A DNA stretch of 59,049 nt from a virus (IMGVR_UViG_3300027808_000032:1-59049), one strand, 5' to 3'. Positions 9,691-59,049 are shown, counted from the first letter of the stretch. Made by a program: numbers and translations. The notes: generated by a model from the sequence alone, not told the origin.

Positions 9691-9692
9691 TT

Positions 9693-10582: not shown

Positions 10583-10584
10583 AA

Positions 10585-16560: not shown

Positions 16561-16602
16561 AGTTAAAAAAATGTTTATTAACTTTGTACAAATTATAATC
16601 TT

Positions 16603-17679: not shown

Positions 17680-17699
17680 CCTTTTAAAACCTAAAAATC

Positions 17700-19127: not shown

Positions 19128-19149
19128 GAAGAAAGGCAAAAACTAAGAT

Positions 19150-19181
19150 GGGGGTCGCAGTTGAGCGGCCCCCTCTTTTTT
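19150..19181 (+). terminator. Intrinsic terminator after capsid gene
   Basis: GGGGGTCGC-agttga-GCGGCCCCC plus T-run. Confidence 0.8.
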
Positions 19182-19212
19182 ATCTTTCAGTAAACCCTTT
19201 AATTCAAATACA

Positions 19213-19962
19213 ATGAAAACAAAGTTAGAATCCAAAGACCGTATCTACCGGTTAAAAAAGAATGCTGCTCCTTTGACATACAGCATCCCTGTCCGCAATT
19301 CCAAGAGTATGCCATTGCTGTACTTTGATGAGGACCAAAACATAAACCGCGCTCTGCGTTATGCGCGAAATCAAAAAAGCCCTTTTGAGGATGAGCAGGA
19401 TGGAAATGCCATCATTGAACCCATCGTTTTTGAGAACGGATTCCTTTTTGTTCCTCGTACAAACCCTGTCCTTCAGCAGTTCTTGAACTACCACCCACTA
19501 AATGGTGTTTCCTTTGAGGAAGTTAACCACGAGAAAGATGCTCAGAAAGAGATGGAGCAATTATCAATTGAGGCTGACGCTTTGATTGAAGCTCGTCAGA
19601 TGTCTGTTGAGCAGTTGGAGCTTGTTGGCCGGGTGCTATTGGGCAAGGATGTAACTCGAATGACTACCGCCGAACTTCGCCGGGACATTCTTGTGTATGC
19701 TAAGCAAGACCCCTTTGGTTTTATGAACATCATCAATGACCCATCATTGCAAGCGAGCTCTTCTGTTCGTATGTTCTTTGACAAGGGGTTATTGACCATG
19801 CGGAACAACAACAAGGAGGTGTGGTATAGCACTCCGTCGAACAAGAAGAAGATGTTGAATGTTCCATATGGAGAGGACCCATACGATATGGTCACCAACT
19901 ACTTGCACTCCGGTGATGGTATTGAGGACTTGAAGATGTTGGAGAATTTCTTAGAGCAATAA
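19213..19962 (+). CDS. Conserved hypothetical protein
   Basis: 249 aa ORF after capsid gene. Confidence 0.75.
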   Translation: MKTKLESKDRIYRLKKNAAPLTYSIPVRNSKSMPLLYFDEDQNINRALRYARNQKSPFEDEQDGNAIIEPIVFENGFLFVPRTNPVLQQFLNYHPLNGVSFEEVNHEKDAQKEMEQLSIEADALIEARQMSVEQLELVGRVLLGKDVTRMTTAELRRDILVYAKQDPFGFMNIINDPSLQASSSVRMFFDKGLLTMRNNNKEVWYSTPSNKKKMLNVPYGEDPYDMVTNYLHSGDGIEDLKMLENFLEQ

Positions 19963-19982
19963 GCGTCTCTTCTCGGAGACTC
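19963..19982 (-). repeat. 20-bp quasi-palindrome, copy 2
   Basis: GCGTCTC-TTCTCG-GAGACTC on + strand. Confidence 0.85.
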
Positions 19983-19987
19983 AAATC

Positions 19988-20016
19988 AAGGTCGCAATTC
20001 GCGACCTTTTTTTTTT
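19988..20016 (+). terminator. Intrinsic terminator
   Basis: AAGGTCGC-aattc-GCGACCTT plus T-run. Confidence 0.75.
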
Positions 20017-47180: not shown

Positions 47181-49567
47181 TCGTTTGTTTTAAAGCATAT
47201 CCAACGTCCACCAAAGTCTCGACCTTCCTCCGGAATGATTCCGTACTTGAACAATCCGTATGAAACAAGCCACTTGTAGAACTTTGTCCTTGAGATTGTC
47301 ATTCGACTCTTCGGGCCGTAGTCCGGATACTCGCTGATGAACTCGAAGTAGAGCTCTTGCTTGTAAACCTTGATTCCCGGCTCTAGCATCTTGGCCGGCT
47401 CTGCGTTGTCTACCAATCCGCACCACTCAATAAAATCGTGGGTGGTCTCAGCAGATAGCTGACGAATCTTAAGGTTTACAAACTTGCTCTTTACAAGACC
47501 TGTTGTCAAGTAGTTCTTCAAGCAAGACACCATGTAGTTGTCGAACTCGCACCAATCATCATCGTTCCAATCACCGAAGAACAGCTTTCCGAACTCATCA
47601 AATGGAGTGAAGTCCTTGGAGTAGTACTGATGTAGCTCCAACTCCCACTTCCTACGAGCAAATGAGTTGCCTGCTCCCTTGATGGCGTAGTTCGTGGTGA
47701 TGGCAATCTTCGGAGACTTGGAGAATGGAATCTTGATGGCATCCTTGTTCTTCTTCTCAAGAGTAATACCCTCGGTAACAACACTGAACAGCCGCTCAAA
47801 ATCAAAGTGCCTCTTCACGTCATCGAAGACAAGAATCTGCGTATCTGCAGACACCAACTGATATGCAAAAGACCGCTCGAATGCAAACGACTTGCCATCT
47901 ATGGTTACAACCTTCTTCATTTGACTCAGTGCACTCATAACGATTCCCTTTCCGGTTCCTCCCTCCGGATTGTCGGAGATGACCTCATCGTTTAAGATTA
48001 TGGCCGGGCAGTATGAGAAGTTCTTGTAGCCATGCATCATGAACCCAATCGTGCTCCGCATAGACTCAATCCGCTCCGGCTCTGTGTGACAGATGTTCTC
48101 AATGAACCTCTTGAAAGCAAAGGATGGAGATGTCTTGCACTGAATGAAGTTTCTGTCAATGACTTGGTCTTTCCATACGTATCCTCCAAGGTCAAGATAG
48201 TCAATCGGCATCACTTCAGACTTTGTAATCTTTACAGCACAGTTCCGGTAGTACAGATACGCAGTGTCCTTGGTGTCCTCGATGAAGTAAATGTCAATGG
48301 TGTTCAACATCGATAAGAACTCATCCTTAAAGAACCGAGTTTGGTCAGCGAAGTAGTTGTACACGTTGATGTCATCCAACTCAAGGAGATGGTTCAGAAC
48401 GAAGTCCTTTATCTCCTTCTCAGATGCATGGTCAATCAAGTTGTTGGTCACCTTAACGAAGACGTAGTTCTTACTTCCCTCGGGGCAGAACTTGTAGAAC
48501 CCATTGTCCTCCAAGAACTGCTTGAAAAGGATGTGTACAATCTTTACAGAACCCTTGTCGTTCTTAGTCCAAAAGGTTAGCTTGGTGTTCTCATCCTCAA
48601 TTCTATTTAGGAGAGCGTCCACAGCATCCCCATCCAAGTCTGACTCCAATAGCTGAGACCGAACCTCTTTCTTGGAGACACCTCTGCGTATCTTGGCTTT
48701 GACCTGATTCACTCGCTCTTCATCCTCGTAGTACTTCGTTCCGAAGTTTCTAGTGTTCTGATATGCTGAGTCTATGGTTCGGATAATCTCCGACTCGGTG
48801 AAGTCTCCTGTTGAGTATTGGTTCAAGACGTATCCGGCCAAGCTCTTGTTTACACCGAAGTCATTAAATGCCATGGCCAAGACAAAAGCATTTTGGTTTC
48901 TCTGTCCCTCAATCATCGGGTACTTATTTGTCCACCACTTCACGAGTATGTCCACAATCTTGTTCTCATCTGTGATGGGGATGGTTGGGGCATCCCGATA
49001 CTTTATGACCTCGTTGTAGGATGCCTCCTCAATCTTGTCCCAAACGAATGAGTTGTTGTTGATGTATATGAGTGGGTCATATGACTCGTAGCAAACTCGG
49101 CTTATGTTCTTCGTTGCTTTGTCGAAGTATGGAGAGTTGAAGTGAGACTGAAGTGAGTTGAAGTAGTTGATGTGGTTCTCGGGGTCGGCAGGAATCTTTA
49201 CCAAAACCTTGAGTCCGTTTCCGGATGGAGAGATGAATACCGAGTACACGTACTTATCTTTGCTTAGGCTCTCCTTGTCGGATAGCAATTCCTTTTGCTT
49301 CTCGTATCCATCGAAGTCCAAGCAGATGATTCCGCTATGCTCTAGTATGGATGCATCGTTCCTTTTGTTGAACGTGCCGGAGAAACATATGGCCGGAAGC
49401 ATCTTCTTCATCTCTTGACGCTCAGGCTTCCTCTTCTCATTGCGTATCTTCTTGACCAACTCCTTTGATGCTCCCTCGCGAATGCGATTGATGATAGAGT
49501 CTACCGGCCGGAAGAAGGGGGCTGAGGTATCCTTGATGTTCTGAAATATTGTGACGTTTGTTGTCAT
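47177..49567 (-). CDS. Primase-helicase (BT4734/VirE-N primase, PriCT, SF3-like helicase)
   Basis: LPAICFSG, ICLDFD, SPSGNGLK, SRVCYESYDP, EGQRN, GGTGKG, VFDD, ITTN. Confidence 0.88.
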   Translation of the reverse strand: MTTNVTIFQNIKDTSAPFFRPVDSIINRIREGASKELVKKIRNEKRKPERQEMKKMLPAICFSGTFNKRNDASILEHSGIICLDFDGYEKQKELLSDKESLSKDKYVYSVFISPSGNGLKVLVKIPADPENHINYFNSLQSHFNSPYFDKATKNISRVCYESYDPLIYINNNSFVWDKIEEASYNEVIKYRDAPTIPITDENKIVDILVKWWTNKYPMIEGQRNQNAFVLAMAFNDFGVNKSLAGYVLNQYSTGDFTESEIIRTIDSAYQNTRNFGTKYYEDEERVNQVKAKIRRGVSKKEVRSQLLESDLDGDAVDALLNRIEDENTKLTFWTKNDKGSVKIVHILFKQFLEDNGFYKFCPEGSKNYVFVKVTNNLIDHASEKEIKDFVLNHLLELDDINVYNYFADQTRFFKDEFLSMLNTIDIYFIEDTKDTAYLYYRNCAVKITKSEVMPIDYLDLGGYVWKDQVIDRNFIQCKTSPSFAFKRFIENICHTEPERIESMRSTIGFMMHGYKNFSYCPAIILNDEVISDNPEGGTGKGIVMSALSQMKKVVTIDGKSFAFERSFAYQLVSADTQILVFDDVKRHFDFERLFSVVTEGITLEKKNKDAIKIPFSKSPKIAITTNYAIKGAGNSFARRKWELELHQYYSKDFTPFDEFGKLFFGDWNDDDWCEFDNYMVSCLKNYLTTGLVKSKFVNLKIRQLSAETTHDFIEWCGLVDNAEPAKMLEPGIKVYKQELYFEFISEYPDYGPKSRMTISRTKFYKWLVSYGLFKYGIIPEEGRDFGGRWICFKTNE

Positions 49568-49721
49568 TTTAATGATGTTTTTATGACACTTAAGTTATTG
49601 ATTATTAATTATATGTCGATTATGTCGATTTTAAAGTAAAAGTATATTTAAAAAATACTATTACATAGAAAGAAAATAAGAGAGAGAGTAGGAGAGTTTA
49701 TATTTTCGACATTTCCGACAT
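49561..49721. repeat. Origin-like element, copy 2, directly upstream of the primase gene
   Basis: Same motif order as 712-871. Confidence 0.7.
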
Positions 49722-49778
49722 GAGAAAAGAATGGGGGAACGAATCCGCTCCCCCTATCCCTTTTTGATTTGGCTTCAG

Positions 49779-50081
49779 TTAGAACGGAAGTGCATCTCCA
49801 TCCACATCAGGAGAATGAACAGGGTCATTTGCAGGTGCAGGTGCTGACCGAGTTGTTGCTTGGTCTCCACCCTTCGGTTGCCACGTGTCGAGCTCGACAT
49901 AGTAGTTGCCGCTGCGTGCTTGCTTAATCTGAAGGTTCACCCATCCCTTCCGCTCATTGTCCCTCATGAATTGAATGGCCTCATCGACCTTCATGGATAG
50001 GCTTCCAACAACGAAGTTGGGTGATGACTCTTGACGCTTAAATGAAAAGCCGTCCGCGAAAACTTTTTCTTGTTCGCTCAT
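49779..50081 (-). CDS. Probable single-stranded DNA-binding protein
   Basis: OB-fold-like sequence with C-terminal DGDALPF tail. Confidence 0.7.
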   Translation of the reverse strand: MSEQEKVFADGFSFKRQESSPNFVVGSLSMKVDEAIQFMRDNERKGWVNLQIKQARSGNYYVELDTWQPKGGDQATTRSAPAPANDPVHSPDVDGDALPF

Positions 50082-50170
50082 AAAAAAATGGTATTTGTTT
50101 TCCCCTCAGATAAATTTTAATTGTTCTCCTCTCTTGGGCCCGAGGGGTTCGCCCAATTGATTTGATTTTT

Positions 50171-50190
50171 GCGTCTCCTCCAAGAGACTC
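50171..50190 (+). repeat. 20-bp quasi-palindrome, copy 5 (variant spacer)
   Basis: GCGTCTC-CTCCAA-GAGACTC. Confidence 0.7.
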
Positions 50191-50937
50191 TTAGAGCAGC
50201 TCCATTTCAATGTAGTGGTTGTCCACACTATCGAATGCTATCGGCCCGAAGTATCTGTTGTAGACCTCTATGGCCTGCTCAACCTTATGCTTTCCGAACA
50301 TAAGGAACTCCTCTGTTGGCCGGAACACACCGAGCTGTGCTGTCTCCTTGTCAATGACGTAGAACACCAATGGCTTACCGAATAGCTGTCCGTAGAGCCA
50401 AGCCTGAGAGTCGTAGTTGTACGCTCTTGCAGAGTACTTGAATCGGTGGATGTCTCCGGTGGTCTTTAGGTCAATGAGAATGTGCTCAGAGACAATGTCT
50501 GCCTTGCCCTTCCAAAGTTGACCAAGAACATCCTTCACCTCCGGAACTTCGAACTTATTCCCGGGCCGATAGATTTCATCGTAGAAGTGGATGTTGGATT
50601 TCATGACCGACACAAGGTGCTCGATGTTCTCCTTCTCATGCTGAAGAAGTGCTATCTCAAGTCCGCTCTCTGCGATGAACTGCTTGTAGATGTTGGTGTT
50701 CCTTGTGGATGCATCAACAAATGGAACTGACTCAGCCTTGTCAGGCTCAATGAGTAGCTGATGAAAGTATCTGCCCTCCAACAAAGCCTTGGAGTCCTCG
50801 CGACGCTTGCGGTAGTCCTTCGGGTTGGCGAGAAGAACTCCTATGTCGGAGTTCGACAGGAATTTCCTGCCGAACTCTCCATAGTAGTCAGAATCATCTT
50901 GGAGTCTTTGGATGATTTGATTTTTGTTCTTCATCAC
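50191..50937 (-). CDS. PD-(D/E)xK exonuclease (RecE/DUF3799-like)
   Basis: LSNSD..G..FH..LIEP; KGKAD..IDLKTT..Y.YD.QA.LY. Confidence 0.85.
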   Translation of the reverse strand: MMKNKNQIIQRLQDDSDYYGEFGRKFLSNSDIGVLLANPKDYRKRREDSKALLEGRYFHQLLIEPDKAESVPFVDASTRNTNIYKQFIAESGLEIALLQHEKENIEHLVSVMKSNIHFYDEIYRPGNKFEVPEVKDVLGQLWKGKADIVSEHILIDLKTTGDIHRFKYSARAYNYDSQAWLYGQLFGKPLVFYVIDKETAQLGVFRPTEEFLMFGKHKVEQAIEVYNRYFGPIAFDSVDNHYIEMELL

Positions 50938-51566
50938 AATAGCTCCTTGATTTTGTTTGCAACGGCCGGAGCAATGGTGTACTTCCGCTTCAACTGAGCC
51001 ACAATCTTATCGTATCCCGACTCCTTGTTGGCATTGACGTAGGACAAAACTCGCTCCCAATTCTCTGTGCCGGTCTTCAGTGACTCAAGGGCAGCAGCAC
51101 CACCTGTTGGGGTTGATTGGACATTTGAAGAGGTGCGTGGGTTGCCCATGGTCGGGGCAGCAGCCGGCTCACCGGGGATGTCCTCTCCGCTCCATAGTTG
51201 GATGCCGAGTCCATGCATGGCAATTGCCTTGGCTGTTGAACGCTGAATGGACTTGTTAACATCGGTTGCGGTAATCTTATCAACGAGGATAGGATTGTTC
51301 CGAAAGTCCATGATTGGCAAGTAGTCGATGTGCTCAAGTCCATTAATGGTGATTCCCACCTTGACGTATCCTGTTCTGCCATCGGTGAAGAAGTTCATCC
51401 CTGTTGAGGGGTCTTCATACACGTTCCGATTTGCATTCGGATAGCTTGACTTTAGCATAGACCATGCCCATGCCCATGAGAGGTAGTCCAATCCACCTTT
51501 GTTCTCGATTTTGTCCCTGAAAGGAACGCTGTTTAAGGTCTCGAAGACCGATTTGGTTGTTTCCAT
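50934..51566 (-). CDS. Single-strand annealing protein (Sak3/DUF1071)
   Basis: LDYLSWAWAW..LPIMDFRN..DVNKSIQR..KAIAMHGLG.QLW.GED. Confidence 0.85.
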   Translation of the reverse strand: METTKSVFETLNSVPFRDKIENKGGLDYLSWAWAWSMLKSSYPNANRNVYEDPSTGMNFFTDGRTGYVKVGITINGLEHIDYLPIMDFRNNPILVDKITATDVNKSIQRSTAKAIAMHGLGIQLWSGEDIPGEPAAAPTMGNPRTSSNVQSTPTGGAAALESLKTGTENWERVLSYVNANKESGYDKIVAQLKRKYTIAPAVANKIKELL

Positions 51567-51578
51567 ATGAATGGTTTG

Positions 51579-51878
51579 TTAAATGGTTACTGAATTGATT
51601 ACGTCATCTAAGAAAGAACGGAACTCTTTTTGGTGCGATGACTTTGACACCTTGTTGATTCCATGGATGATTGTTGTGTGAGCCACGTTTATGCCTGCGT
51701 ATTGCATTAGCATTACCTTTATGTCGCACACTCGGAGTCCTTTCCTTTTACACAGATAGAAGATTGTTTGTCGAGCATCTGATGAGTACCTGCTTCTGCT
51801 GTTGACCAAATCGTCTTGGCTCAGTTCGTACATCTCTTTTACACGCTCAACGATTGACTTTAAAACCTTTGAGTTCAT
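51579..51878 (-). CDS. DnaA domain IV-like HTH protein
   Basis: SRSR..DARQ.IFYLC..HTTIIHG. Confidence 0.65.
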   Translation of the reverse strand: MNSKVLKSIVERVKEMYELSQDDLVNSRSRYSSDARQTIFYLCKRKGLRVCDIKVMLMQYAGINVAHTTIIHGINKVSKSSHQKEFRSFLDDVINSVTI

Positions 51879-51959
51879 TTGATTTTATAGATTGTGCGGA
51901 TATCAAAGGGCGTATCCGCTTCGCCACCAAAGATAGGCAATATGGTGGTAATCACCAAA

Positions 51960-52331
51960 TTATCCGTAAACTATTTCACCGAGAATCATGTACTGAAAAA
52001 CAACGTCGGCCTCTTCTGCATCGCAGTATCCATTTACAATGTTGTGCATTGAGATGTTGGCGTACTGCATAAATTTTGATAAGTTTTTCATCGCAATGCT
52101 CTTACAAAGAAGTCCTATTTTTTCTGTTGGCTCTTCTGCATCAATTACTTCGAGGAAATTGCCATCACAGAAGTTCCGATAGACTCTAATTGAGAATGGG
52201 ACATCAGGATATTTTGTCTTCAGGGTTTCATAGGTTGTTTCACTGACATCAAACCAATGGTTTGAACCACCTTCAATTGCTGTAACAAAGATAGACTCAA
52301 GGTCTATTTCTAATTCGATTGTTGCTTTCAT
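51960..52331 (-). CDS. Hypothetical protein
   Basis: TAIEGGSNHW..DA..AD..FQ..GEIVYG conserved-looking ORF. Confidence 0.75.
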   Translation of the reverse strand: MKATIELEIDLESIFVTAIEGGSNHWFDVSETTYETLKTKYPDVPFSIRVYRNFCDGNFLEVIDAEEPTEKIGLLCKSIAMKNLSKFMQYANISMHNIVNGYCDAEEADVVFQYMILGEIVYG

Positions 52332-52358
52332 GTTATGTGTATTTGATTAATTGTTAAA

Positions 52359-52414
52359 CAAAGTTTGCAATAAACTTTGACATATGCAAATGCCAAATGT
52401 TAATTAAATGTTAA
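52359..52414 (-). promoter_or_regulatory. Probable promoter with upstream TTAACA pair
   Basis: Near-consensus -7 (AAACTTTG), 20-nt spacer, TTTG; block shared with 57539-57604. Confidence 0.5.
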
Positions 52415-52687
52415 TATTTCAAAAAAGATTATTTTCTACCCTGAACTCCGTTGAATTTACTCATGGTATTTGTTTTTAATTGTTAATTCGTACCCTATCG
52501 GTAGTTGGATGCTTGGTTTCTAATGCAGCCGTACCCTATCGGGGGCTGTTTGGATTGTGCATTGGTTTGCCCCATTTATTGCCAATATTTGGGACGATAA
52601 TCGAGATAAAACCGATTACGATAACATAACGTAACAACTTGTCGTAAAAGGGATAAAACGCTTTGTTTTTGCGTCTTTAATGACAAG

Positions 52688-52716
52688 TTAGTAGTCAGGA
52701 CAGGACTCGAACCTGT
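52688..52716 (-). ncRNA. tRNA 3'-half-like element (T-arm plus 3' acceptor strand only)
   Basis: ACAGG-TTCGAGT-CCTGT-CCTGACT-ACTAA on - strand; 5' half replaced by AT-rich sequence. Confidence 0.5.
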
Positions 52717-52745
52717 AAAGATATTAAATATAAATTAAATTACAA

Positions 52746-53228
52746 CTATAGATGATATTTAACCTTCATCCAATATGACTCAGTTGATACCTTAGACATC
52801 CCCCTAGGGCCTCCGTTCCAACACCGAGCAATTGACTCGTAGTCCAAGTCCTTGTGGTGCTTCTCCACAATCACCATCAGCATATCCACAGACTTGTCGC
52901 AGTCCCACCTGTCATTCATGGTGTATAATTCAGAACCTAAAAGCCTGTTGACCTCCCTGACCATGATTGGTCTTATCTGCAAGCAGCCAACTGCATCCTC
53001 CCTTCCATTGTATGCACAATCGTTGCCTCTGCTCTCAACCTGAATCATGCTCGCAACCAAGCTATTCAAAGAGTCCGCAATCCATCTCGTTTCTGCATCA
53101 GTCATCATTGTAGAGTCTCTTGTCGGAGACTCTAAGTTGATTTGATTGTCGATGCAAGTGCTAGGAATCACAACGAATCCCAAGTAGCTGCCAATAATTG
53201 CGGCAATGATAAAAGAAATTGTCTTCAT
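52746..53228 (-). CDS. Lysozyme-like protein (SLT / i-type destabilase-like) with N-terminal signal or TM segment
   Basis: MIQVES.G..A.GCLQIRP..ARCWNGGP.G..T..YW.KV. Confidence 0.75.
   Translation of the reverse strand: MKTISFIIAAIIGSYLGFVVIPSTCIDNQINLESPTRDSTMMTDAETRWIADSLNSLVASMIQVESRGNDCAYNGREDAVGCLQIRPIMVREVNRLLGSELYTMNDRWDCDKSVDMLMVIVEKHHKDLDYESIARCWNGGPRGMSKVSTESYWMKVKYHL
53113..53132 (-). repeat. 20-bp quasi-palindrome, copy 6 (intragenic)
   Basis: GAGTCTC-TTGTCG-GAGACTC on + strand. Confidence 0.85.
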
Positions 53229-53246
53229 GTCAATTGGTATAAAAGG

Positions 53247-53450
53247 TTAATAGGATGAAAGAACCTCTACAATGGTGGTTACTCTCTGAACTAACTGCTT
53301 CCTTTCCCTCCAATAAGGATGGGGAGAATTGACGTACTCAGATTCGATAACTGCACGAGCCTCAGCCTCAGTTTCAAATGTCTCTGAATGATACATAGGA
53401 TGCAATGCATCTACGATTTGATAACGAACAGATTTACTTGGGGTGTTCAT
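53247..53450 (-). CDS. Hypothetical early protein
   Basis: 67 aa, overlap-coupled. Confidence 0.6.
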   Translation of the reverse strand: MNTPSKSVRYQIVDALHPMYHSETFETEAEARAVIESEYVNSPHPYWRERKQLVQRVTTIVEVLSSY

Positions 53451-53710
53451 GGTCTTGTGAATTTAATGGTTAATGAATTGGTGCTTGAGCCAACAAGTAT
53501 GGCTACATCTGATGATGGGTGAGTCTCGTGATAAAGGTCATACGTCCTGACCTTCTGCTCCAAGTCCATGGAATGCCAAAGCCGAAGGATGCTGCCCATA
53601 CCCATACTCTCATCTAAGTCCAAGATGTCTCGCTTGTCAGCCATGCTCAGGCTGAAGAACCACCTGTCAATTTGACCTATCAGTGGCTCAATTACGTTAC
53701 GAAAAATCAT
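53447..53710 (-). CDS. Hypothetical early protein
   Basis: 87 aa, overlap-coupled. Confidence 0.6.
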   Translation of the reverse strand: MIFRNVIEPLIGQIDRWFFSLSMADKRDILDLDESMGMGSILRLWHSMDLEQKVRTYDLYHETHPSSDVAILVGSSTNSLTIKFTRP

Positions 53711-54212
53711 GGCTCATCAATACTAAATGTCCATTGTAATCCTGACCTCTGTTGAGAACCCAAGAGTACTCGACAATAGAGATGTTTTCTGTGTCCGTCA
53801 GACACAAAAAGTCAATGGCACGTTTCAATGCCTCATAGCGAACTAGTGCGTCATAAAAGTTGTTGAACACCTCATACACGTCATTGTCTGCGAAGATGTA
53901 GTAGTAGTGGATGATGTCTGACTCATCATCCAAGTGAAAAATGTTCGACCAATCGGCCAAGTCCTGCTCTGTTAATGGATAGTAGGACTTCCTTCCATAT
54001 AGGCCACAGATAGCATTCCAAAACTTCCGACCTTCATCAGATGCTGACCATGGGAATCCGCCAAAAAGGATTTGGTTGCCTCCAATCCACCGAGGATTGT
54101 CTTCATTGAGCCAATCTAACCCTGCTTGCACTCCCCTCCATTTTAATGTGTTTCGGACAAATGACTCAGCAATTGTCTCTTCTAGCTGCGAAATAAAATC
54201 AATCGGTCTCAT
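53697..54212 (-). CDS. Hypothetical early protein
   Basis: 171 aa; F.W..S.EG.KFW motif. Confidence 0.65.
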   Translation of the reverse strand: MRPIDFISQLEETIAESFVRNTLKWRGVQAGLDWLNEDNPRWIGGNQILFGGFPWSASDEGRKFWNAICGLYGRKSYYPLTEQDLADWSNIFHLDDESDIIHYYYIFADNDVYEVFNNFYDALVRYEALKRAIDFLCLTDTENISIVEYSWVLNRGQDYNGHLVLMSHDFS

Positions 54213-54445
54213 AGGTTTCTAATTATGTTTTGAATTTGAATGAATGAAAGGTTTACCTCATCTTCCGATAAGTAGTAGGCAATGCCCATGTCTATGCTGT
54301 AGGCTTCGTCAGAAACGAATGCTCCACTTCGATTCATAAGAGCATCAGCAAGAGCCACAACGGACAAGTGATACTCAATGCCATCTACGTAGACCAAGTA
54401 CAGGGGATAGGCTTTGCCTCTGAAAATAATTTTCTCTGTGGTCAT
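54209..54445 (-). CDS. Hypothetical early protein
   Basis: 78 aa, ATGA overlaps at both ends. Confidence 0.65.
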   Translation of the reverse strand: MTTEKIIFRGKAYPLYLVYVDGIEYHLSVVALADALMNRSGAFVSDEAYSIDMGIAYYLSEDEVNLSFIQIQNIIRNL

Positions 54446-54936
54446 GATTGTTTATTGAAGTGATTGTTAAAGATTTCTTCTGCAATGTAGTTCCCCGAAT
54501 TAAGGTGTCCGCGAAGAACCCGAATCGAACTGACTACCCTATCACCAACAATCTTGTCGGCTGTGTCTGTGAATATCATGCGATTCGCAAAATGTAGGAT
54601 TCGCAAGGTCTCTTCGTTGTGGTCTGTGCAGTCCCATCTTCCATTGTCTATGTAGTAGATAGGCTCAGAAACGTATCCACAGACCTCAACAAATGCTCCA
54701 TGCAAGCTGCATTCCAATGGCTCGTATCCTCCGAAGGAGTAGTCTCTGCCATCAAAGATAAACTTGAATCCGCGACCTACAACACCCATGGCAGGTAAGG
54801 AATCCTCGTGAGACCATTCATCACCATTGATGTTTACTTTGAAAATCGGAAGGATGTCCCGACCATCTTCTGCGTCAGCCAACACTAAGGATTGGTAGTT
54901 AGACTCGATGCTGTGCTCAATTACTAGCTTTCTCAT
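54442..54936 (-). CDS. Hypothetical early protein
   Basis: 164 aa, immediately downstream of a tRNA-like element. Confidence 0.65.
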   Translation of the reverse strand: MRKLVIEHSIESNYQSLVLADAEDGRDILPIFKVNINGDEWSHEDSLPAMGVVGRGFKFIFDGRDYSFGGYEPLECSLHGAFVEVCGYVSEPIYYIDNGRWDCTDHNEETLRILHFANRMIFTDTADKIVGDRVVSSIRVLRGHLNSGNYIAEEIFNNHFNKQS

Positions 54937-54956
54937 TTTGATTTGGTATTAAAAGT

Positions 54957-55043
54957 TAGTGTGGCTTTCGGACTCGAACCGAAGGAAGAGTCTCTTCTCG
55001 GAGACTCAAATTGCTGCTAAGCATTCCGACCATCAACCACTAG
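54957..55043 (-). ncRNA. tRNA-like element C (contains palindrome copy 7 at 54988-55007)
   Basis: GTGGTT-gatggtc-..hairpin..-TTCGG-TTCGAGT-CCGAA-AGCCAC-ACTA. Confidence 0.65.
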
Positions 55044-55124
55044 ACAAAGGTTGGGAATGTATGGGACATTAGCAATAGCTAAATGCCCCATAATTCTTAA
55101 GAATTGTTAATTAACAGCTCCGTT

Positions 55125-55520
55125 TCAGTCTTGAGACCTTTCCCATACTTCATGGCCTATCCGCTCATTTATCTGCTCCATTGTCAAACCATTTTCAAGA
55201 ACTGAAGACAAAATGTCTTGGCATTCATCATCGGGAATGGTTGTGTCGAAGCACTTAACATCATCAACATGCCAAAGATTCCGAGTAAAATAGCCGTTAT
55301 CATCCAACACATTTTTTGCTTCGTCTATGGATATGTGTCCAACCTCAATACCAATGTCTAGGCCATTACCTAGAGCCTCGTTAAGGTCTTCAAAGGTTTC
55401 GATTAGAGCCTCGCTGTCATCATCGTATAGGGTGTAGAGCTCAAACAATTCAGAGCTAAAGATTTCTTTTGCTTTGTCGGTTACAACCAACCAAACAAAG
55501 CCATTTACATTTTTTGTCAT
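55125..55520 (-). CDS. Acidic hypothetical early protein
   Basis: 131 aa D/E-rich with conserved early leader. Confidence 0.7.
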   Translation of the reverse strand: MTKNVNGFVWLVVTDKAKEIFSSELFELYTLYDDDSEALIETFEDLNEALGNGLDIGIEVGHISIDEAKNVLDDNGYFTRNLWHVDDVKCFDTTIPDDECQDILSSVLENGLTMEQINERIGHEVWERSQD

Positions 55521-55831
55521 AATTGATAGGTGTTTAATGGTTATTGTAATTAAATTGAAATGGTTTCGATGTCTTCAGCAGAGGGAATAAAGCTAATGTG
55601 AGCATTCGGATAGCGCTTCCAAAGAGCTTCGACCAATGACTCATTGTCATACTCTTCGTATCCATCTCGCTCTTGGTTGACCAATGGATTGATTACTTCG
55701 ATAATGTCCTGCTCGCTCAGGTCTGTCAAAAGATAGAAGTTTTCTTCTTCGAATGCTGTGGTGTTGATTCTGAAAATGTTCATAATTGATAGGTGTTTAA
55801 TGGTTATTGTAATTAAATTGAAATGGTTTCG
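55517..55831. repeat. 52-bp perfect direct repeat (55517-55568 and 55780-55831)
   Basis: TCATAATTGATAGGTGTTTAATGGTTATTGTAATTAAATTGAAATGGTTTCG occurs twice. Confidence 0.9.
55550..55783 (-). CDS. Acidic hypothetical early protein
   Basis: 77 aa between the 52-bp repeats. Confidence 0.7.
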   Translation of the reverse strand: MNIFRINTTAFEEENFYLLTDLSEQDIIEVINPLVNQERDGYEEYDNESLVEALWKRYPNAHISFIPSAEDIETISI

Positions 55832-55853
55832 GTGTTTCTAAGATATTAAGTGA

Positions 55854-56423
55854 TTATTCTTTTTCGTAAATTGCCTCGCCATTGGAGAATCTGCCGACAC
55901 ACCTTAGTGCTGCACTGCTATGCTCCCGAAATACCTTCTCGGTTTCTTCAGCAAGACTAGACATCATGTCGACGATTCTCTGCCTGATTAGGGATGCCAA
56001 TAGGTCAAGAACATCCGAATCGGTCTCGCCTGATACGGCATACGAATTCCTGTCCAATAACTCCTTGATGTAGTCTTCATCGGGAACGGATTGTATGTCC
56101 AATTCACCATATCCATCCAAGGAATAGCCAATCTCCCAATCTAAATTAGCATCCGAATAGTAACCTGACCGAATGCAAGTTTTAATGTGGACATCAAAGT
56201 CAATTGGCTTCCCATTCTCAGGATTCCAAACGCATCCGTTTATAAACTTCTCGGTCATGTATCGGCCATCGTACTTGTCCCATGACTCTCTCGTAGATTC
56301 ATGGCCAATATCGATAAGGGATGCAGTCAAATTGGCAGCAGCATCATCGAAATCAAATTCTTCTTGAATCGGAATGACAAAGACTCTGCTTGCATTGTTG
56401 GTGATAAAATTAGATGTAGCCAT
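55854..56423 (-). CDS. Acidic hypothetical early protein
   Basis: MATSNF..RSGYY..ANLD..RFSNGEAIYE. Confidence 0.75.
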   Translation of the reverse strand: MATSNFITNNASRVFVIPIQEEFDFDDAAANLTASLIDIGHESTRESWDKYDGRYMTEKFINGCVWNPENGKPIDFDVHIKTCIRSGYYSDANLDWEIGYSLDGYGELDIQSVPDEDYIKELLDRNSYAVSGETDSDVLDLLASLIRQRIVDMMSSLAEETEKVFREHSSAALRCVGRFSNGEAIYEKE

Positions 56424-56461
56424 AGCTGATAAGTGATTAAATGGTTAATGATTAAAAAAGT

Positions 56462-56528
56462 TAGCTGTGGCATCGGAATCGAACCGATTTTGAGTCTCCG
56501 AGAAGAGACGCAAACACCATGGCCACAA
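56462..56528 (-). ncRNA. tRNA-like element B (contains palindrome copy 8 at 56492-56511)
   Basis: TTGTGGC-catggtg-hairpin-ATCGG-TTCGATT-CCGAT-GCCACAG-CTA. Confidence 0.7.
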
Positions 56529-56542
56529 TACCAATGAGCATC

Positions 56543-56935
56543 TTATCCCTGAGAAGGGAATTTGAAGTACTGAAGGTCAAACGGATGTCTTTCGCCATCC
56601 CAACCATCCACATACACAAGATGTCCTTCCCATGTTTCATCTACCTGATAAGCAAATGATATGGCATCCTGCGTAGTGTAGGCAATTAAGGAAGACATGA
56701 ATCTAATGACATTCAAGTTAAAAGCAATGGTTTTCGGGGATGTGCTGCTGATAAAGGTAAGCACAAAGGTCTCTTCAGGTTTGCCATCCCATTCGCCTAA
56801 GTGCGTCTCTACCTTTGCATCCGACAGGCCAAAAATACTTCCTGCCAATTCCATTACTCTGCTGAATTCAGCATTCGAAAATGCTCCAAAGGGATTGTTC
56901 TCCTTCCCGATGTTAAAAATTACACGATTGCTCAT
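56543..56935 (-). CDS. Hypothetical early protein
   Basis: 130 aa with conserved early leader. Confidence 0.7.
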   Translation of the reverse strand: MSNRVIFNIGKENNPFGAFSNAEFSRVMELAGSIFGLSDAKVETHLGEWDGKPEETFVLTFISSTSPKTIAFNLNVIRFMSSLIAYTTQDAISFAYQVDETWEGHLVYVDGWDGERHPFDLQYFKFPSQG

Positions 56936-56955
56936 AACTGATAGGTATTAAATGA

Positions 56956-57231
56956 TTATGGAAATGAGTCATACTCTACAAGACTCGCCAAAACACTGAC
57001 ATCTCCTGAGAATCTTTGAACGTAATCAAATAGGTTCTCAAGACGATATCCATCGGCATCAATCTCTACATGAGAGACACGTATTACATACACGTCATTC
57101 CTTGAAATGTCCAATGGAATAGAACTTGAGACACCTTTGAATCTGCCAATGAAACTAGCAAATTCCTGTGCTGTCATGTGAGATTGGTGATTACCATCTC
57201 TGTCAATTAAAAAAACTATTTCTCGCTTCAT
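56956..57231 (-). CDS. Hypothetical early protein
   Basis: 91 aa, downstream of tRNA-like element A. Confidence 0.65.
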   Translation of the reverse strand: MKREIVFLIDRDGNHQSHMTAQEFASFIGRFKGVSSSIPLDISRNDVYVIRVSHVEIDADGYRLENLFDYVQRFSGDVSVLASLVEYDSFP

Positions 57232-57262
57232 GGCTGATAAGTGATTAAGTGATTAAAAAAGT

Positions 57263-57328
57263 TAGCAGCAGCATTGGAGTCGAACCAATTTAGAGTCTCC
57301 GAGAAGAGACTATAAGACCTTCACTGCT
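57263..57328 (-). ncRNA. tRNA-like element A (contains palindrome copy 9 at 57293-57312)
   Basis: AGCAGT-gaaggtc-hairpin-ATTGG-TTCGACT-CCAAT-GCTGCT-GCTA. Confidence 0.7.
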
Positions 57329-57329
57329 T

Positions 57330-57349
57330 GCGTCTCCGACAAGAGACTC
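57330..57349 (+). repeat. 20-bp quasi-palindrome, copy 10
   Basis: GCGTCTC-CGACAA-GAGACTC. Confidence 0.85.
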
Positions 57350-57498
57350 TAGGCAAGAAAATGCAGCATTAGAAAGCTATAGGCAAAGCCTGTCAGAATG
57401 ACTCCCATGCCTATAAGGTAGGATTGGATTGTTGACCTGCGATTCTCAGCGCGGAGTCTAGCTTGCTCGCGCTCGATGTCAAAAAATTGATTGCTCAT
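57349..57498 (-). CDS. Small membrane protein (49 aa)
   Basis: MSNQFF.. with C-terminal TM helix; ATG at 57498 has the early leader. Confidence 0.6.
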   Translation of the reverse strand: MSNQFFDIEREQARLRAENRRSTIQSYLIGMGVILTGFAYSFLMLHFLA

Positions 57499-57538
57499 GG
57501 TGAATTGAATTAAATGGTTAACGATTAAAAGGTATACA

Positions 57539-57604
57539 CAAAAGTACTTCAGAACTTCGACATATGCAACAGGCAAAGATGCCGATTTTGTTAAAGAATG
57601 TTAA
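57539..57604 (-). promoter_or_regulatory. Early promoter (-7 TACTTTTG, -33 TTG, 20-nt spacer) with upstream TTAACA pair
   Basis: Matches the Bacteroidota housekeeping promoter consensus. Confidence 0.7.
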
Positions 57605-57613
57605 AAGATAGCA

Positions 57614-57633
57614 GAGTCTCCGATAAGAGACTC
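57614..57633 (+). repeat. 20-bp quasi-palindrome, copy 11
   Basis: GAGTCTC-CGATAA-GAGACTC. Confidence 0.85.
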
Positions 57634-57653
57634 CGCATACCTTCCCACATTCA

Positions 57654-58592
57654 TTACTTGGCAGCTACATAAAAGTGAGCAGGAGACTCGGCCTGATAGC
57701 TGTAGCCAACCCTAGCAATTAGCTTGCTCACAGATTCGCTAATTTTACCTTCGTCTCCGAAAACTAACTGACCTTTGTGCTCCACATACTGCAAATTGTC
57801 GGTGAAAAGCACATTCCCTTTGCCGACCTTGGTCTCTACTCCAATGGCATTCAAGACCTTCTGTAGCTCCTTGGCAGATACCTTGGCTGCTGTAGGCTTG
57901 GCAGTCTCCTTGGCTTTGGCCTTGGCATCAGCAATGGCCTGTGCCTGTGCTTTGGCCTGCTCCTTGGCCTGTGAATCAGCAAGAGCCTTGGCATTTCGCT
58001 CATCTACAATCGGCAGCAAAGCAGTCAATTGCTCAATAACTTGCTGAAGGTCAGCAGAAGTAAATTCGCTGCGGATTGTGGCACTGCCATCTGAATTGGC
58101 TTGCACCTTCACAGATACATTGGCCAAATGCCATGTCAACGAGCCAACAATGGTAGTCTTGGTCTCACCTTCACCTTCACCTTCACCTTCACCTTCACCT
58201 TCACCTTCACCTTCAGTCTCCGACAGGAGACTCCTTTTGGCGAATTCCAACAGGTTATTCACCGACCTTTCCACAGCAATCCCCGACTCTGACTCCCGAA
58301 GGTTCGCCCAATCGTTAAATTGCTCCAAGGTATCACCTTCCAAAGATGCTGCCTGAATTAGCTTGTAAGCCCAAGACTTACTAAAGCCATACAAAGGGAA
58401 CAGGTCGGCCTTTTTCAAGCCTTCAGATTTCAGGGCAGCCTTACCTTCCTTGGTGTCTGCCCAATTAGTTCCTTGGCGGATAACTTCGCCAATCTTCAGG
58501 TGAATAGCCAACACAGACTCTTCACCTTTCTTTAGCTGTGCAGTTAGCTTCTCTACAGCAGCGACGTTCAGATTCTTTTTTAAATTGCTCAT
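57654..58592 (-). CDS. First gene of the minus arm: hypothetical protein with possible HTH, (GE)n linker and A/K-rich segment
   Basis: 312 aa; YGFSKSWAYKLIQ helix; (TCACCT)n at ~58166-58213; contains palindrome copy 12 at 58214-58233. Confidence 0.75.
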   Translation of the reverse strand: MSNLKKNLNVAAVEKLTAQLKKGEESVLAIHLKIGEVIRQGTNWADTKEGKAALKSEGLKKADLFPLYGFSKSWAYKLIQAASLEGDTLEQFNDWANLRESESGIAVERSVNNLLEFAKRSLLSETEGEGEGEGEGEGEGEGETKTTIVGSLTWHLANVSVKVQANSDGSATIRSEFTSADLQQVIEQLTALLPIVDERNAKALADSQAKEQAKAQAQAIADAKAKAKETAKPTAAKVSAKELQKVLNAIGVETKVGKGNVLFTDNLQYVEHKGQLVFGDEGKISESVSKLIARVGYSYQAESPAHFYVAAK

Positions 58593-58792
58593 GGTATGTA
58601 GGTATTAAATTCTGCGACATCGTTTGGTCAATCGCTCCGCTAAGGTCTGTAGAAGTTTTGTGTAAAGCAAATTTTGGAATGTTAAAATTTGTTAAAGCCT
58701 TTGATAGCAAGGGTTTCAGGAGCTCGCAAAATGATATTGGTTAGAATGGGGCAGTTCAGGGTCAGGGAGAACGCCTGCCTTTGTGTCATGTC

Positions 58793-58841
58793 TCTGCCAT
58801 TTTGTCTGCCATTTTGTCAGCATAACATCTGCCATTTTGTC
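58793..58841. repeat. Three TCTGCCATTTTGTC direct repeats
   Basis: 58793-58806, 58805-58818, 58828-58841. Confidence 0.8.
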
Positions 58842-58915
58842 AGGTTTGGCAGTCATTCCGTAACAGCATGCAGCACAGCACAGCACAGCACAGGGCATGG
58901 GCAGGCATGGAGCAG

Positions 58916-59049
58916 GCATCGGCTCGGCTCGGCTCGGCTCGGCTCGGCTCGGCATGGGCATCGGCATGGGCATCGGCATGGGCATCGGCATGGGCAGTGA
59001 GCAGGGCAGGGCAGGGCAGGGCAGGGCAGGGCAGGGCAGGGAGCAGGGA
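58916..59049. repeat. Right terminal direct repeat / contig overlap
   Basis: Matches 1-144 apart from two fewer GCAGG units. Confidence 0.9.

Follow-up and report, generated by a model that had tools for sequence, protein, structure and literature searches.

The window, which is the whole 59,049-bp stretch of DNA that was analysed, constitutes an entire virus record with a CheckV completeness of 97%. Its genes lie in two arms. The plus arm carries GroEL/GroES, terminase, portal, and structural genes together with the gene for a 3,814-aa protein, and the genome encodes crAss-muzzle-like tail proteins. The distal part of the minus arm contains the replication and recombination genes; upstream of these lie about 15 small ORFs, most of which have no family match. 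The features needed for what follows are:

58593 to 59049, continuing through 1 to 360, no strand: inter-arm non-coding region with short G-rich tandem repeats (Tandem Repeats Finder)
57654 to 58592, minus strand: first early-arm ORF, 312 aa, with a (GE)n linker and weak Pfam/PHROG matches only
51579 to 57576, minus strand: fourteen small early ORFs of 67-189 aa, nine of them with a calculated pI of 4.0-5.0
52746 to 53228, minus strand: early ORF for an SLT transglycosylase with an N-terminal hydrophobic stretch
51579 to 51878, minus strand: early ORF for a DnaA_C-like HTH protein
50934 to 51566, minus strand: gene for a Sak-type single-strand annealing protein (SSAP; Pfam PF06378, 1.4e-31; phrog_659)
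53113 to 58233, no strand: seven copies of the hairpin GAGTCTC-N6-GAGACTC between early ORFs
51176 to 59049, continuing into 1 to 295, no strand: CCGG-free arc
1 to 295, no strand: remainder of that arc, inside the non-coding repeat region that separates the two gene arms
296 to 51172, no strand: CCGG-rich remainder of the genome, 325 sites

The repeat arrays of the inter-arm region are (TCGGC)7, (GCATGGGCATCG)n, and (GGCAG)n, and this region is a candidate for the genome-end site. The 312-aa ORF and the HTH protein are the only early-arm ORFs with a tblastn match in all five of the first-fetched relatives; for the former, protein atlas matches are viral clusters without names, and a PDB sequence search gave no match. 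The hairpin occurs 12 times in the window versus 0.14 expected, with copies in the arc at 53113, 54988, 56492, 57293, 57330, 57614, and 58214 and five more outside it. These hairpins may be early transcription signals.

The original prediction, made by eye, held that CCGG is missing from 51176 to the right end and from 1-295, and counting confirms this: there are no sites in these two stretches and 325 in the rest, the first at 296 (followed by 310 and 430) and the last at 51172. The estimate of roughly a dozen sites in groEL was also accurate (13 were counted), and the CCGG-free zone does coincide with the small, probable early genes. Because the ends of the record overlap (1-131 matches 58916-59048 at 98%), both empty stretches belong to a single 8,173-bp arc on a circular map. 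The second-largest gap between CCGG sites in the window is 1,085 bp. Avoidance is thus confined to 14% of the genome, with the word over-represented in the remainder, and the absence of a recognition word from one segment of a genome that contains it elsewhere is the pattern of leading-region avoidance. The GC content is 0.439 in the arc and 0.441 in the remainder. The border of the arc lies inside the SSAP gene, of which codons 1-130 lack CCGG and the subsequent sequence has sites at 51172, 51164, 51070, and 50966; a PDDEXK exonuclease is also encoded right at this border. The border is also spanned, with no differing letters, by a contig from a different metagenome run (X5 record 14, 49982-52402), and the record is therefore not a mis-join at this point.

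A background-level count in the arc would have countered the claim of depletion, but the expectations range from 6.1 to 52. Base composition gives 18.9 sites, a second-order Markov model gives 14.3, and the density of the remaining genome gives 52; if 325 sites were placed uniformly, the probability that a given arc of this size would be empty is 9e-22. Synonymous shuffling of the 15 ORFs in the arc, which keeps each gene's own codons, yields an expectation of 6.1 and gives zero in 0.1% of 1000 shuffles. When the words that are purged from the whole genome are also forbidden, the expectation is 7.9 and none of 60 shuffles has fewer than 4, and when codon choices from outside the arc are applied at matching dipeptide contexts, it is 18.7, with a probability of zero of 1.4e-11. 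The individual contexts show the same effect. At NCN-Gly, NCC is used in 155/264 cases outside the arc versus 0/9 inside; CCG is used for Pro before a G-starting codon in 100/210 versus 0/8; and CGG is used for Arg after an NNC codon in 60/169 versus 0/27. In addition, the approximately 1.9 kb of non-coding DNA in the arc is likewise without CCGG. Pro and Gly are less frequent in the early-arm proteins, and this alone lowers the opportunity for CCGG about threefold: the dipeptide contexts that are prone to CCGG are 3-3.5 times less common in the arc (4.6 versus 16.3 and 4.1 versus 12.9 per 1000 codons), and the dipeptide Pro-Gly occurs 0 times in the 1,969 residues of the arc ORFs versus 44 times in 16,233 residues outside. 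The scarcity of these contexts and the missing Pro-Gly may themselves be products of avoidance. Local codon usage and amino acid content, which had been named as a potential full explanation, thus cut the expectation about threefold and leave the zero unexplained; avoidance of CCGG in the arc operates at synonymous sites.

Outside the arc, the ORFs contain 315 CCGG sites, a 2.2-fold excess over the 140.3±8.1 expected by synonymous shuffling. This excess must be viewed together with the words that the genome lacks throughout. In the window as a whole, CCAG/CTGG is found once versus 353 expected and GATC is found 0 times versus 224 expected; by synonymous shuffling, the figures are 1 versus 285 outside the arc and 0 versus 27 inside it for CCAG/CTGG, and 0 versus 145 and 0 versus 16, respectively, for GATC. 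Both words therefore show genome-wide avoidance of restriction sites at synonymous positions. CACGG/CCGTG, CCCGC/GCGGG, AACGTT, and AAGCTT are also purged throughout. A ban on CCAG/CTGG, GCGGG, and similar words would channel Pro, Ala, Thr, and Ser codons before Gly, as well as Arg codons, into CCGG. When the purged words are also forbidden in the shuffling, 215-235 sites are expected versus the 315 observed; this constrained model forbade seven words only, so that further excess may be a by-product as well. Roughly half of the CCGG excess follows from the genome-wide purge of CCAG/CTGG, GATC, and other words, and the residual surplus might additionally be selected.

Comparison with a sister genome, G001, indicates how the arc has behaved since the two diverged. 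The arc has 1,110 mismatches with only 2 private CCGG sites, both of them in G001, while the aligned blocks outside the arc have 62 private sites per 2,391 mismatches. Avoidance of CCGG in the arc is still being maintained. In the equivalent arm, G001 has 3 CCGG sites in 8.85 kb and another relative, G002, has 6 in 9.4 kb, versus about 5-6 per kb in the flanks, and in both of these genomes, as in the window, the border falls at +391 from the SSAP ATG. Amino acid identity of the early arm to G002 is 35-89%.

The relatives also show that arm-specific avoidance in this family is not special to CCGG. In G002, GATC is found 3 times in the early arm versus 33 expected but 220 times in the rest versus 201 expected, and CTAG and CCAG are missing from early arm and rest alike. 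Using within-gene synonymous shuffling, the observed/expected values for GATC in the early arm and in the rest are 1/27.6 and 201/172 in G002, 8/25.3 and 209/202 in G003, and 4/17.5 and 132/177 in G006; those for GTAC are 0/10.2 and 90/146 in G008 and 0/9.6 and 79/142 in G009; and those for CTAG are 4/13.9 and 124/138 in G010. An unbiased scan for gaps in 12 whole Elemovirus-like genomes (1,584 word-by-genome tests, cut-off log10P < -6) found 25 significant 4-mer gaps, and for 21 of these at least 80% of the gap falls within the early arm, upstream of the SSAP gene; this arm makes up about 18% of a genome in the scan. Of the other four, three are gaps of AAAA, and the last, of GTAC, has 79% of its length in the arm. 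The words concerned (GATC, GTAC, AGCT) differ by lineage. Across 41 loci of the family, CCGG is the most asymmetric of 136 words, with an observed/expected ratio of 0.21 upstream of the SSAP gene and 0.58 downstream, and it is lower upstream in 35/41 loci; these family tests share ancestry and are hence not independent. There are exceptions to the pattern, as G003 has no CCGG zone and the whole minus arm of G005 is CCGG-poor. Given the GATC pattern of G002, the blocker of CCGG-targeting defence that had been proposed is not the most economical interpretation.

The arc corresponds to the early arm of a podophage that is Elemovirus-like and whose host is probably a freshwater member of the Bacteroidota. 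An avoidance that is confined to one region, acts at synonymous sites, is still maintained, and recurs, with other palindromes, in the corresponding arm of relatives is best explained, with a probability of roughly 55%, by a selection that removes host restriction sites from a leading early arm, whose products then rescue the remaining genome. According to this explanation, the early arm would have to survive host restriction unaided prior to the expression of its genes, and selection would strip from it every word that local hosts cut, CCGG included. Once the early products had been made, the rest of the genome would be safe from some enzymes, here the one that cuts CCGG, either because it enters later or because it is shielded or rescued, and CCGG outside the arm would be free to accumulate. 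Restriction enzymes would thus be the selecting agent, the arm would be the leading end of a non-permuted genome, and an early protein would protect the remainder. Since GATC, CCAG/CTGG, CACGG, and CCCGC are purged genome-wide, any such protection is enzyme-specific at best. A broader proposal, which we put forward tentatively and regard as having the odds somewhat against it, is that Elemovirus-like podophages of aquatic Bacteroidota expose or deliver a fixed arm of about 8 kb first and that its product neutralises several unrelated Type II enzymes (cutters of CCGG, GATC, GTAC, CTAG, or AGCT, depending on the lineage). If this is true, word gaps that are limited to the arm would provide a computational map of leading ends in uncultured phages and would reveal both the restriction repertoire of unknown hosts and new anti-restriction genes.

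Other explanations differ considerably in how well they accommodate these data. The main rival holds that the early arm is a fast-exchanging cassette from a family pool that mostly purges CCGG everywhere, so that the CCGG-free state was inherited from donors. CCGG is indeed scarce throughout the genomes of many relatives: G004 has 23 sites in 62 kb, several family loci have 0-2, and the cultured relative elemoF, which grows on Flavobacterium, has 0 versus 38 expected and also lacks GGCC and CGCG throughout. The early arm is also more diverged from G001 at the nucleotide level than the rest (16.7% versus 6-9%), with replaced stretches at 50-68% identity, and its border, in a conserved gene, is a plausible crossover point. 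However, identity to G001 drops only mildly across that border, from 0.963 to 0.897, and the asymmetry in the family is directional, not only in the loci and gaps described above but also in the strict cases, in which 11 early-only purges are set against 3 reverse ones (one example is L073, where all 18 copies of CCAG/CTGG are upstream and none is downstream). Furthermore, the early arm always carries a superset of its own genome's purged words, genome-wide purges included; the GATC pattern of G002 would need continued selection or else repeated imports from GATC-free donors only; and residual sites show a polarity along the arm, since in 32 early-depleted cases (among which L024 duplicates G004) the 4 kb far from the SSAP gene have 66 sites versus 406.8 expected and the near 4 kb have 127 versus 393.7. 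Exchange of a cassette therefore appears unlikely as the source of the gap. Still less likely, in our estimate, is a rescue without ordered entry, in which the whole genome enters together, cuts in the early arm are fatal because early expression is blocked, and other cuts are tolerated through early products (recombination/repair proteins, nuclease inhibitors, or DNA-coating proteins) or through host methylation. This would fit all of the sequence statistics that favour a leading arm, the SSAP and the exonuclease are encoded at the border, and a preprint, in the part available, reports that PhiKMV-like phages mitigate DNA-targeting nucleases through a repair that depends on ligase. Yet annealing repair would find no template if a single genome had been cut at many of the 325 sites, the polarity of the residual sites is more natural with ordered entry, and neither a ligase nor a nuclease inhibitor was identified among the genes of the window.

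The two remaining possibilities concern the word itself. CCGG might have a positive function outside the arc, as binding sites or as modification targets that trigger methyl-dependent restriction, with the early arm merely lacking this function. The surplus that persists under constrained shuffling is in line with this, as are 52 apparent gains versus 10 losses of CCGG since the split from G001, a polarisation that is weak because the outgroup keeps only 49% of the shared sites. Nevertheless, the sites in the window show no flanking-base preference, a six-frame search found no DNA methyltransferase family, the palindromes that are avoided by early arms in relatives are different ones, whose density elsewhere is normal rather than enriched, and the null model's seven forbidden words leave room for more of the surplus to be a by-product; such a function is improbable. 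Most improbable of all is an artefact of composition, in which the arc has no CCGG by chance, as its proteins offer few contexts with Pro, Gly, and Arg and its codon usage differs. The rarity of prone contexts and the expectation of only 6.1 from own-codon shuffling lean in this direction, but the shuffles almost never reach zero (none of the 60 constrained ones do), outside codon choices make zero exceedingly improbable, the GC content is equal in both parts, and the non-coding DNA of the arc is empty too.

Phages are known to exclude cut sites from the DNA that has to survive before the rest, and the window fits this strategy. The precedents that had been cited, T5 and T7-type phages, proved to be real, and the leading-arm explanation may be likened to both. 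In the available part of one report, T5 and BF23 resist Type I and Type II systems unless sites lie in the first-step-transfer (FST) region, while the rest of the genome bears sites and still resists in vivo through a protecting function given as unknown (PMC10644984). The FST, as presented in that part, is a terminal segment of about 8-10 kb with small pre-early genes, and the window shows a matching sequence footprint (PMC10644984). The differences are also clear. T5 is a siphovirus of E. coli, whereas the window is the genome of an uncultured, Elemovirus-like phage with crAss-muzzle-like tail proteins. T5 duplicates the FST as a terminal repeat of about 10 kb, whereas the ends of the window overlap by 131 bp only; a search of the arc against the record found this overlap and repeats of at most 35 bp, and no long terminal repeat of the T5 type. 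The T5 injection stop is a long, non-coding, repeat-rich region, whereas the border in the window lies inside the Sak ORF, which counts against the leading-arm explanation; the closest long stretch of non-coding DNA, 52332-52745, belongs to the arc. Given the overlap of the record's ends and a break in the G001 record that falls within the first early gene, these are circular assemblies and thus uninformative on termini. Headful, permuted packaging would make a leading region impossible.

A second precedent comes from T7-like Murciavirus phages of Marinomonas, which, according to the accessible part of the paper, escape a Type I system if its motif is missing from the leading region; a motif at any other position does no harm, and the leading region, which is variable, is believed to harbour anti-defence genes (PMC12455610). 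That work, in the same part, concerns one Type I motif and is experimental, whereas the window involves 4-bp Type II-like palindromes and compositional evidence only. The leading regions of conjugative plasmids are described there as first-entering DNA with a reduced number of restriction targets and with genes for anti-defence (PMC12455610), although these are a different kind of element with single-stranded entry. The genome-wide avoidance seen in virulent phages resembles the GATC and CCAG/CTGG purges of the window, unlike the CCGG gap, which is confined to the arc.

Searches for a protecting function have covered the early arm by Pfam, PHROG, and PDB sequence comparison, which found no known anti-restriction family, and searches of the window found no RNA polymerase gene and no Ocr-like protein. 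A SAM-lyase identity for one early protein was considered and dropped, as the match was weak (E 0.75) and disappeared with a profile search; fold models of early proteins, with pLDDT values of 31 and 36, were too poor for use. Because the six-frame search yielded no DNA methyltransferase family, self-methylation is unlikely. On the host side, two observations indicate that CCGG restriction is present in the likely host group: elemoF, which grows on Flavobacterium, has a genome free of CCGG, and among 301 genomes sampled from the class to which a Bacteroidetes MAG belongs, 15 contain an HpaII-family endonuclease.

The 325 copies of CCGG in the window all lie within 296-51172, and none is found in the 8,173-bp arc made up of 51176-59049 and 1-295; the next-largest gap between copies is 1,085 bp. 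The original prediction, that CCGG is missing from the last ~8 kb and from bases 1-295 and abundant elsewhere, is thus confirmed. The arc and the rest have equal GC content (0.439 and 0.441), and 18.9 copies are expected in the arc from base composition and 14.3 from a Markov model. Within-gene synonymous shuffling gives an expectation of 6.1, with zero copies in 0.1% of 1000 shuffles; when the purged words discussed below are also forbidden in the shuffling, the expectation is 7.9, with a minimum of 4 in 60 shuffles. Codon choices made outside the arc, applied to the same contexts inside it, would generate 18.7 copies (P of zero 1.4e-11). NCC is used before Gly in 155 of 264 cases outside the arc vs 0 of 9 inside, CCG for Pro before a codon starting with G in 100 of 210 vs 0 of 8, and CGG for Arg after an NNC codon in 60 of 169 vs 0 of 27. 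The dipeptide Pro-Gly, whose encoding always creates CCGG, CCAG, or CTGG, does not occur in the 1,969 residues of the translated arc ORFs, vs 44 occurrences in 16,233 residues outside. When all canonical 4-6-mers are compared between arc and rest, CCGG and the 5-mers containing it are the most depleted. Taken together, the synonymous shuffling, the constrained shuffling, and the codon-context expectation rule out a composition artefact, and local codon usage does not fully explain the depletion: the absence of CCGG is real, very sharp, and statistically secure. Among 40 listed single-letter variants from four metagenome runs, none makes or breaks a CCGG (222 further variants lie beyond these), which is uninformative on this point.

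The window is a complete virus record (CheckV 97%). Bases 1-131 repeat 58916-59048 at 98%, within arrays of short G-rich tandem repeats, and because the record ends overlap in this way, the two CCGG-free stretches form one arc on a circular map. The genes lie in two diverging arms:

~0.36-44.1 kb, + strand: plus arm, with GroEL, two GroES-like genes, a peptidase, terminase large subunit, portal, virion proteins, crAss-muzzle-like proteins, and a DUF3293 protein
902-2548, plus arm: GroEL
2980-3237, plus arm: Cpn10 GroES
10585-11148: second GroES-like protein (PHROG match)
32653-44097, plus arm: 3,814-aa DUF3293 protein
58.6 kb down to 44.1 kb, - strand: minus arm, beginning with ~15 small ORFs, mostly without family matches
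distal part of the minus arm: Sak-type single-strand annealing protein (SSAP; 50934-51566), PDDEXK exonuclease, primase/D5-type helicase, SNF2 helicase, PDDEXK endonuclease

The set of GroEL, two GroES-like proteins, and a giant DUF3293 protein is also annotated in Elemovirus, and the annotated layout of Flavobacterium phage elemoF (NC_055853, genus Elemovirus, host Flavobacterium sp. BAL314) matches that of the window. The 3,814-aa protein was considered as a virion RNA polymerase; its sole matches are DUF3293 and a PHROG of unknown function, and a PDB sequence search gave nothing. IMG/VR contains 285 confirmed SSAP relatives, many of them on ~60-kb contigs, in a family that is both freshwater and marine, and contigs of several freshwater metagenomes carry the same phage. 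Searches of the phage collection returned no near-identical record, either with the arc or with 1-20000, which gave one 179-bp match at 82%. A terminase search of bacterial genome contigs found only six loci, all in metagenome-assembled genomes (MAGs) with mixed labels that are probably mis-binned, and gave no host call. One ORF of low GC (0.345), at 3543-4130, lies on the minus strand inside the plus arm and could be a homing-type insertion; it hits a PHROG for endonuclease VII (1.4e-19) and, more weakly (5e-4), one for Lar-like restriction alleviation.

No 4-mer outside the arc is more strongly over-represented than CCGG, which has 315 copies in ORFs vs 140.3±8.1 by synonymous shuffling (z ~22, 2.2-fold). 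Several other words are purged from the entire genome. GATC is absent (224 expected; 145 outside the arc by synonymous shuffling), and CCAG/CTGG is present once, as CTGG at 25902, vs 353 expected (285 by synonymous shuffling). Also missing genome-wide are CACGG/CCGTG (78 expected by composition), CCCGC/GCGGG (61 expected), and AACGTT and AAGCTT (17.6 expected each). CCCGC/GCGGG is the site of FauI, an enzyme of a Flavobacterium. CCAG/CTGG is purged on both sides of the SSAP gene in 26 of 38 family loci, over a GC range of 30-50%; elemoF is an exception (188 observed vs 164 expected). We know of no enzyme with this 4-bp asymmetric site, and a literature search for one that cuts it showed nothing relevant among the matches listed. 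GATG/CATC is enriched 1.5-fold in the window, probably as a substitute for GATC.

These bans bear directly on the CCGG surplus. With CTGG banned, NCT is barred before Gly; with CCAG banned, CCA is barred before G; and with GCGGG banned, GCG is barred in Ala-Gly, so that the codons left produce CCGG. Forbidding only the seven purged words in the shuffler raises the CCGG expectation from 140 to 215-235 (six runs), so that the purges account for about half of the surplus as a by-product. A palindrome can thus be strongly over-represented because neighboring words are banned, and such an excess should be read with caution. The remaining surplus may reflect further avoided words or a genome that is still filling with CCGG; a positive role for CCGG outside the arc, covering the unexplained part, seems improbable. 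Private CCGG sites within 296-51172, relative to the sister genome G001 and polarized with the next relative G002, comprise 52 apparent gains vs 10 losses, a weak polarity given that the outgroup keeps only 49% of the shared sites. The sister states of private sites are mostly the transversion neighbors CCTG/CAGG and CCCG/CGGG, because the transition neighbors CCAG/CTGG are banned. Outside the early arm, the number of CCGG sites may still be rising.

The same arm was compared in ten fetched whole genomes and elemoF. G001, with ~91-94% nucleotide identity to the window outside the arc, has 3 CCGG in its 8.85-kb arm, and G002, mostly at ~75-90% amino-acid identity outside the arc, has 6 in 9.4 kb; the flanks of both carry ~5-6 per kb. 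The borders of the CCGG-poor zone in these two genomes are those of the window, the inter-arm region and position +391 of the SSAP gene, with an additional CCGG at SSAP +156 in G002. (A search with the first early gene as a second anchor, at the other border, found only G001.) Of the three arm sites in G001, one lies in an insertion and two are single substitutions where the window reads GCGG and CAGG. Between the window and G001, the arc has accumulated 1,110 mismatches and 2 private CCGG, vs 62 per 2,391 mismatches in two blocks outside; avoidance has consequently been kept up since the two split. Elsewhere in the family the pattern varies: the zone is absent from G003, G005 is CCGG-poor across its entire minus arm, and CCGG is purged genome-wide in G004 and in elemoF, which has none.

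The avoidance in the arm is not about CCGG as such, and the extra words differ among lineages. In G002, GATC occurs 3 times in the arm vs 33 expected (rest, 220 vs 201) and AGCT 13 times vs 33 (rest, 218 vs 201), and comparable depletions are seen in other whole relatives.

Words depleted in the early arm of relatives, as observed/expected by within-gene synonymous shuffling
G002, GATC: early arm 1/27.6; rest 201/172
G003, GATC: early arm 8/25.3; rest 209/202
G006, GATC: early arm 4/17.5; rest 132/177
G008, GTAC: early arm 0/10.2; rest 90/146
G009, GTAC: early arm 0/9.6; rest 79/142
G010, CTAG: early arm 4/13.9; rest 124/138

An unbiased scan measured the largest circular gap for each of the 136 canonical 4-mers in every one of 12 genomes; requiring at least 40 occurrences gave 1,584 tests, in which 25 gaps reached log10P < -6. 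The interval from -9.5 to +1.7 kb around the SSAP start codon (~18% of a genome) holds at least 80% of each of 21 gaps; three AAAA gaps and one GTAC gap, with 79% of its length there, make up the remaining four. Among 41 loci with at least 5 kb on either side of the SSAP gene, no word is as asymmetric as CCGG (observed/expected 0.21 upstream vs 0.58 downstream), which is lower upstream in 35. Strict thresholds applied to 38 non-duplicate loci yield 11 early-only purges, 3 reverse cases, and 126 purges on both sides. Residual sites in the early-depleted cases are rarer in the distal 4 kb of the arm (66 vs 406.8 expected) than in the 4 kb next to the SSAP gene (127 vs 393.7 expected), using a fixed 8-kb arm and cases that are related by descent, with G004 counted twice via locus L024. 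In the reverse case L073, compared over 7 kb upstream and 9 kb downstream of the SSAP gene, CCAG/CTGG occurs 18 times in the early arm and not at all downstream, which suggests occasional exchange of early arms among lineages whose purges differ. In G008, 3.4 kb of the early arm, between -8.1 and -4.65 kb relative to the SSAP start, lacks many AGC/GCT or GCA/TGC words, including AAGC, AGCA, AGCT, CAGC, GCTA, GCAA, and ATGC simultaneously; this may reflect a shorter avoided word or odd composition.

Position-dependent avoidance of this kind has experimental precedents. Restriction of T5/BF23 (PMC10644984) and of the T7-like murciaviruses (PMC12455610) is reported to be effective only at sites in the first-exposed DNA, the remainder being made safe by early products; in T5-like phages, the protection of late-entering DNA from Type II enzymes is described as still unexplained (PMC10644984). 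In the Discussion of the murciavirus report, surveys of restriction-site avoidance are said to have ignored site location (PMC12455610). A similar account would be the simplest for the window. The early arm would have to avoid all words cut by local hosts, and the rest of the genome only those that the early function cannot neutralize. Such an arrangement would cover an arm that always carries a superset of its own genome's purges, the differences in extra words among lineages, and the pile-up of CCGG outside the arm. Entry could be stepwise, as in T5, paced by transcription, as in T7, or simultaneous with later rescue. CCGG restriction in the host group is plausible: elemoF lacks CCGG, and of 301 genomes sampled from the class to which a Bacteroidetes MAG belongs, 15 have an HpaII-family endonuclease. 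Three DNA methyltransferase families have no match in six frames of the window, making self-methylation unlikely. The original prediction, in which the right end enters first and an early protein blocks a CCGG-targeting defense, is right in kind but too specific, since the same arm avoids other words (GATC and AGCT in G002) in relatives, and its mechanistic steps are conjectural.

Selection against restriction sites on a leading early arm, whose products then rescue the rest, is the reading that we favor at slightly better than even odds (about 0.55). It has also been considered that the early arm is a mosaic cassette, exchanged among relatives and CCGG-free because its donors were. The arm does diverge faster and has replaced stretches, its border falls within a conserved gene, many CCGG-free relatives could have served as donors, and three reverse cases exist; however, the direction of the asymmetry, the superset rule, and the polarity of the residual sites are hard to account for by exchange, as is the G002 arm, still GATC-free while the slower-evolving rest has full GATC density. 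We think this origin unlikely. Rescue without ordered entry, which from sequence alone would give the same picture as a leading arm, seems less probable again.

Selection on a leading arm would differ from the T5 case in that the window has no long terminal duplication of the arm, its border cuts the SSAP ORF, where T5 has a non-coding stop region, and several words are purged even genome-wide. Since those purges remain, protection would be at best selective, and given these differences the window is classed as working like leading-region avoidance and not like T5-type two-step injection. T5-like and T7-like phages already exhibit the phenomenon; what is new is its recognition as a family-wide compositional footprint among uncultured Elemovirus-like phages. 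It is an unusually clean case of position-dependent avoidance, detected from sequence alone, in an unrelated and abundant freshwater and marine family. If the favored reading is correct, it predicts the packaging mode, with fixed, non-permuted ends located inside the repeat region (58.6-59.05/0-0.3 kb) and the early arm as the leading end. A literature search found no description of Elemovirus genome ends, and the word 'elemo' has 0 occurrences in a Flavobacterium phage paper (PMC7077304).

The ~15 early ORFs would likewise become a short list for a broad anti-restriction activity. Nine are acidic (pI 4.0-5.0), which we take as suggestive of DNA mimics; these have no match to known families, PDB sequences, or named atlas clusters, and the protein atlas gave unnamed clusters only, for two early proteins. 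PDB sequence searches with six early-arm queries found nothing except a weak SAM-lyase match for ORF 54442-54936 (E 0.75-0.82), which was rejected because it was lost with a three-sequence profile, the top match then being neurofibromin (E 0.36). Two AlphaFold models made in search of a protecting protein are unusable (pLDDT 31.4 and 36.5), homologues being too few: an exhaustive search found five proteins, two of them usable, and word-index searches 8 and 1.

The non-coding region between the arms (58860-59049 and 1-240) contains arrays of (CAGCA)n, (TCGGC)7, (GCATGGGCATCG)n, ~10 (GGGCA), and (GCAGGTATGGGCAG)4, of which the GGGCA array conforms to a G-quadruplex motif. Repeat copy number in these arrays differs between the two ends of the record, and this difference probably broke the assembly. 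A perfect hairpin, GAGTCTC-N6-GAGACTC, is present in 12 copies vs 0.14 expected (at 5785, 19963, 36201, 45977, 50171, 53113, 54988, 56492, 57293, 57330, 57614, and 58214), seven of which lie between early ORFs. In several cases the hairpin is followed by GGTTCGAnTCC, a sequence like a tRNA T-arm; a tRNA-like identity was rejected, as ARAGORN found 0 tRNAs and Rfam, searched over 51000-59049, had 0 matches at E ≤ 1. Across 49000-59049, predicted promoters and terminators were no more numerous than in shuffles; the hairpins may be early promoters, terminators, or processing sites. Identical stretches of ~50 nt (55521-55570 and 55784-55833) precede the two most acidic early ORFs, 55125-55520 and 55550-55783, and a related motif (TAACCATTTAA ... 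ATCA) lies upstream of many early ORFs; it looks like a shared early leader or promoter element.
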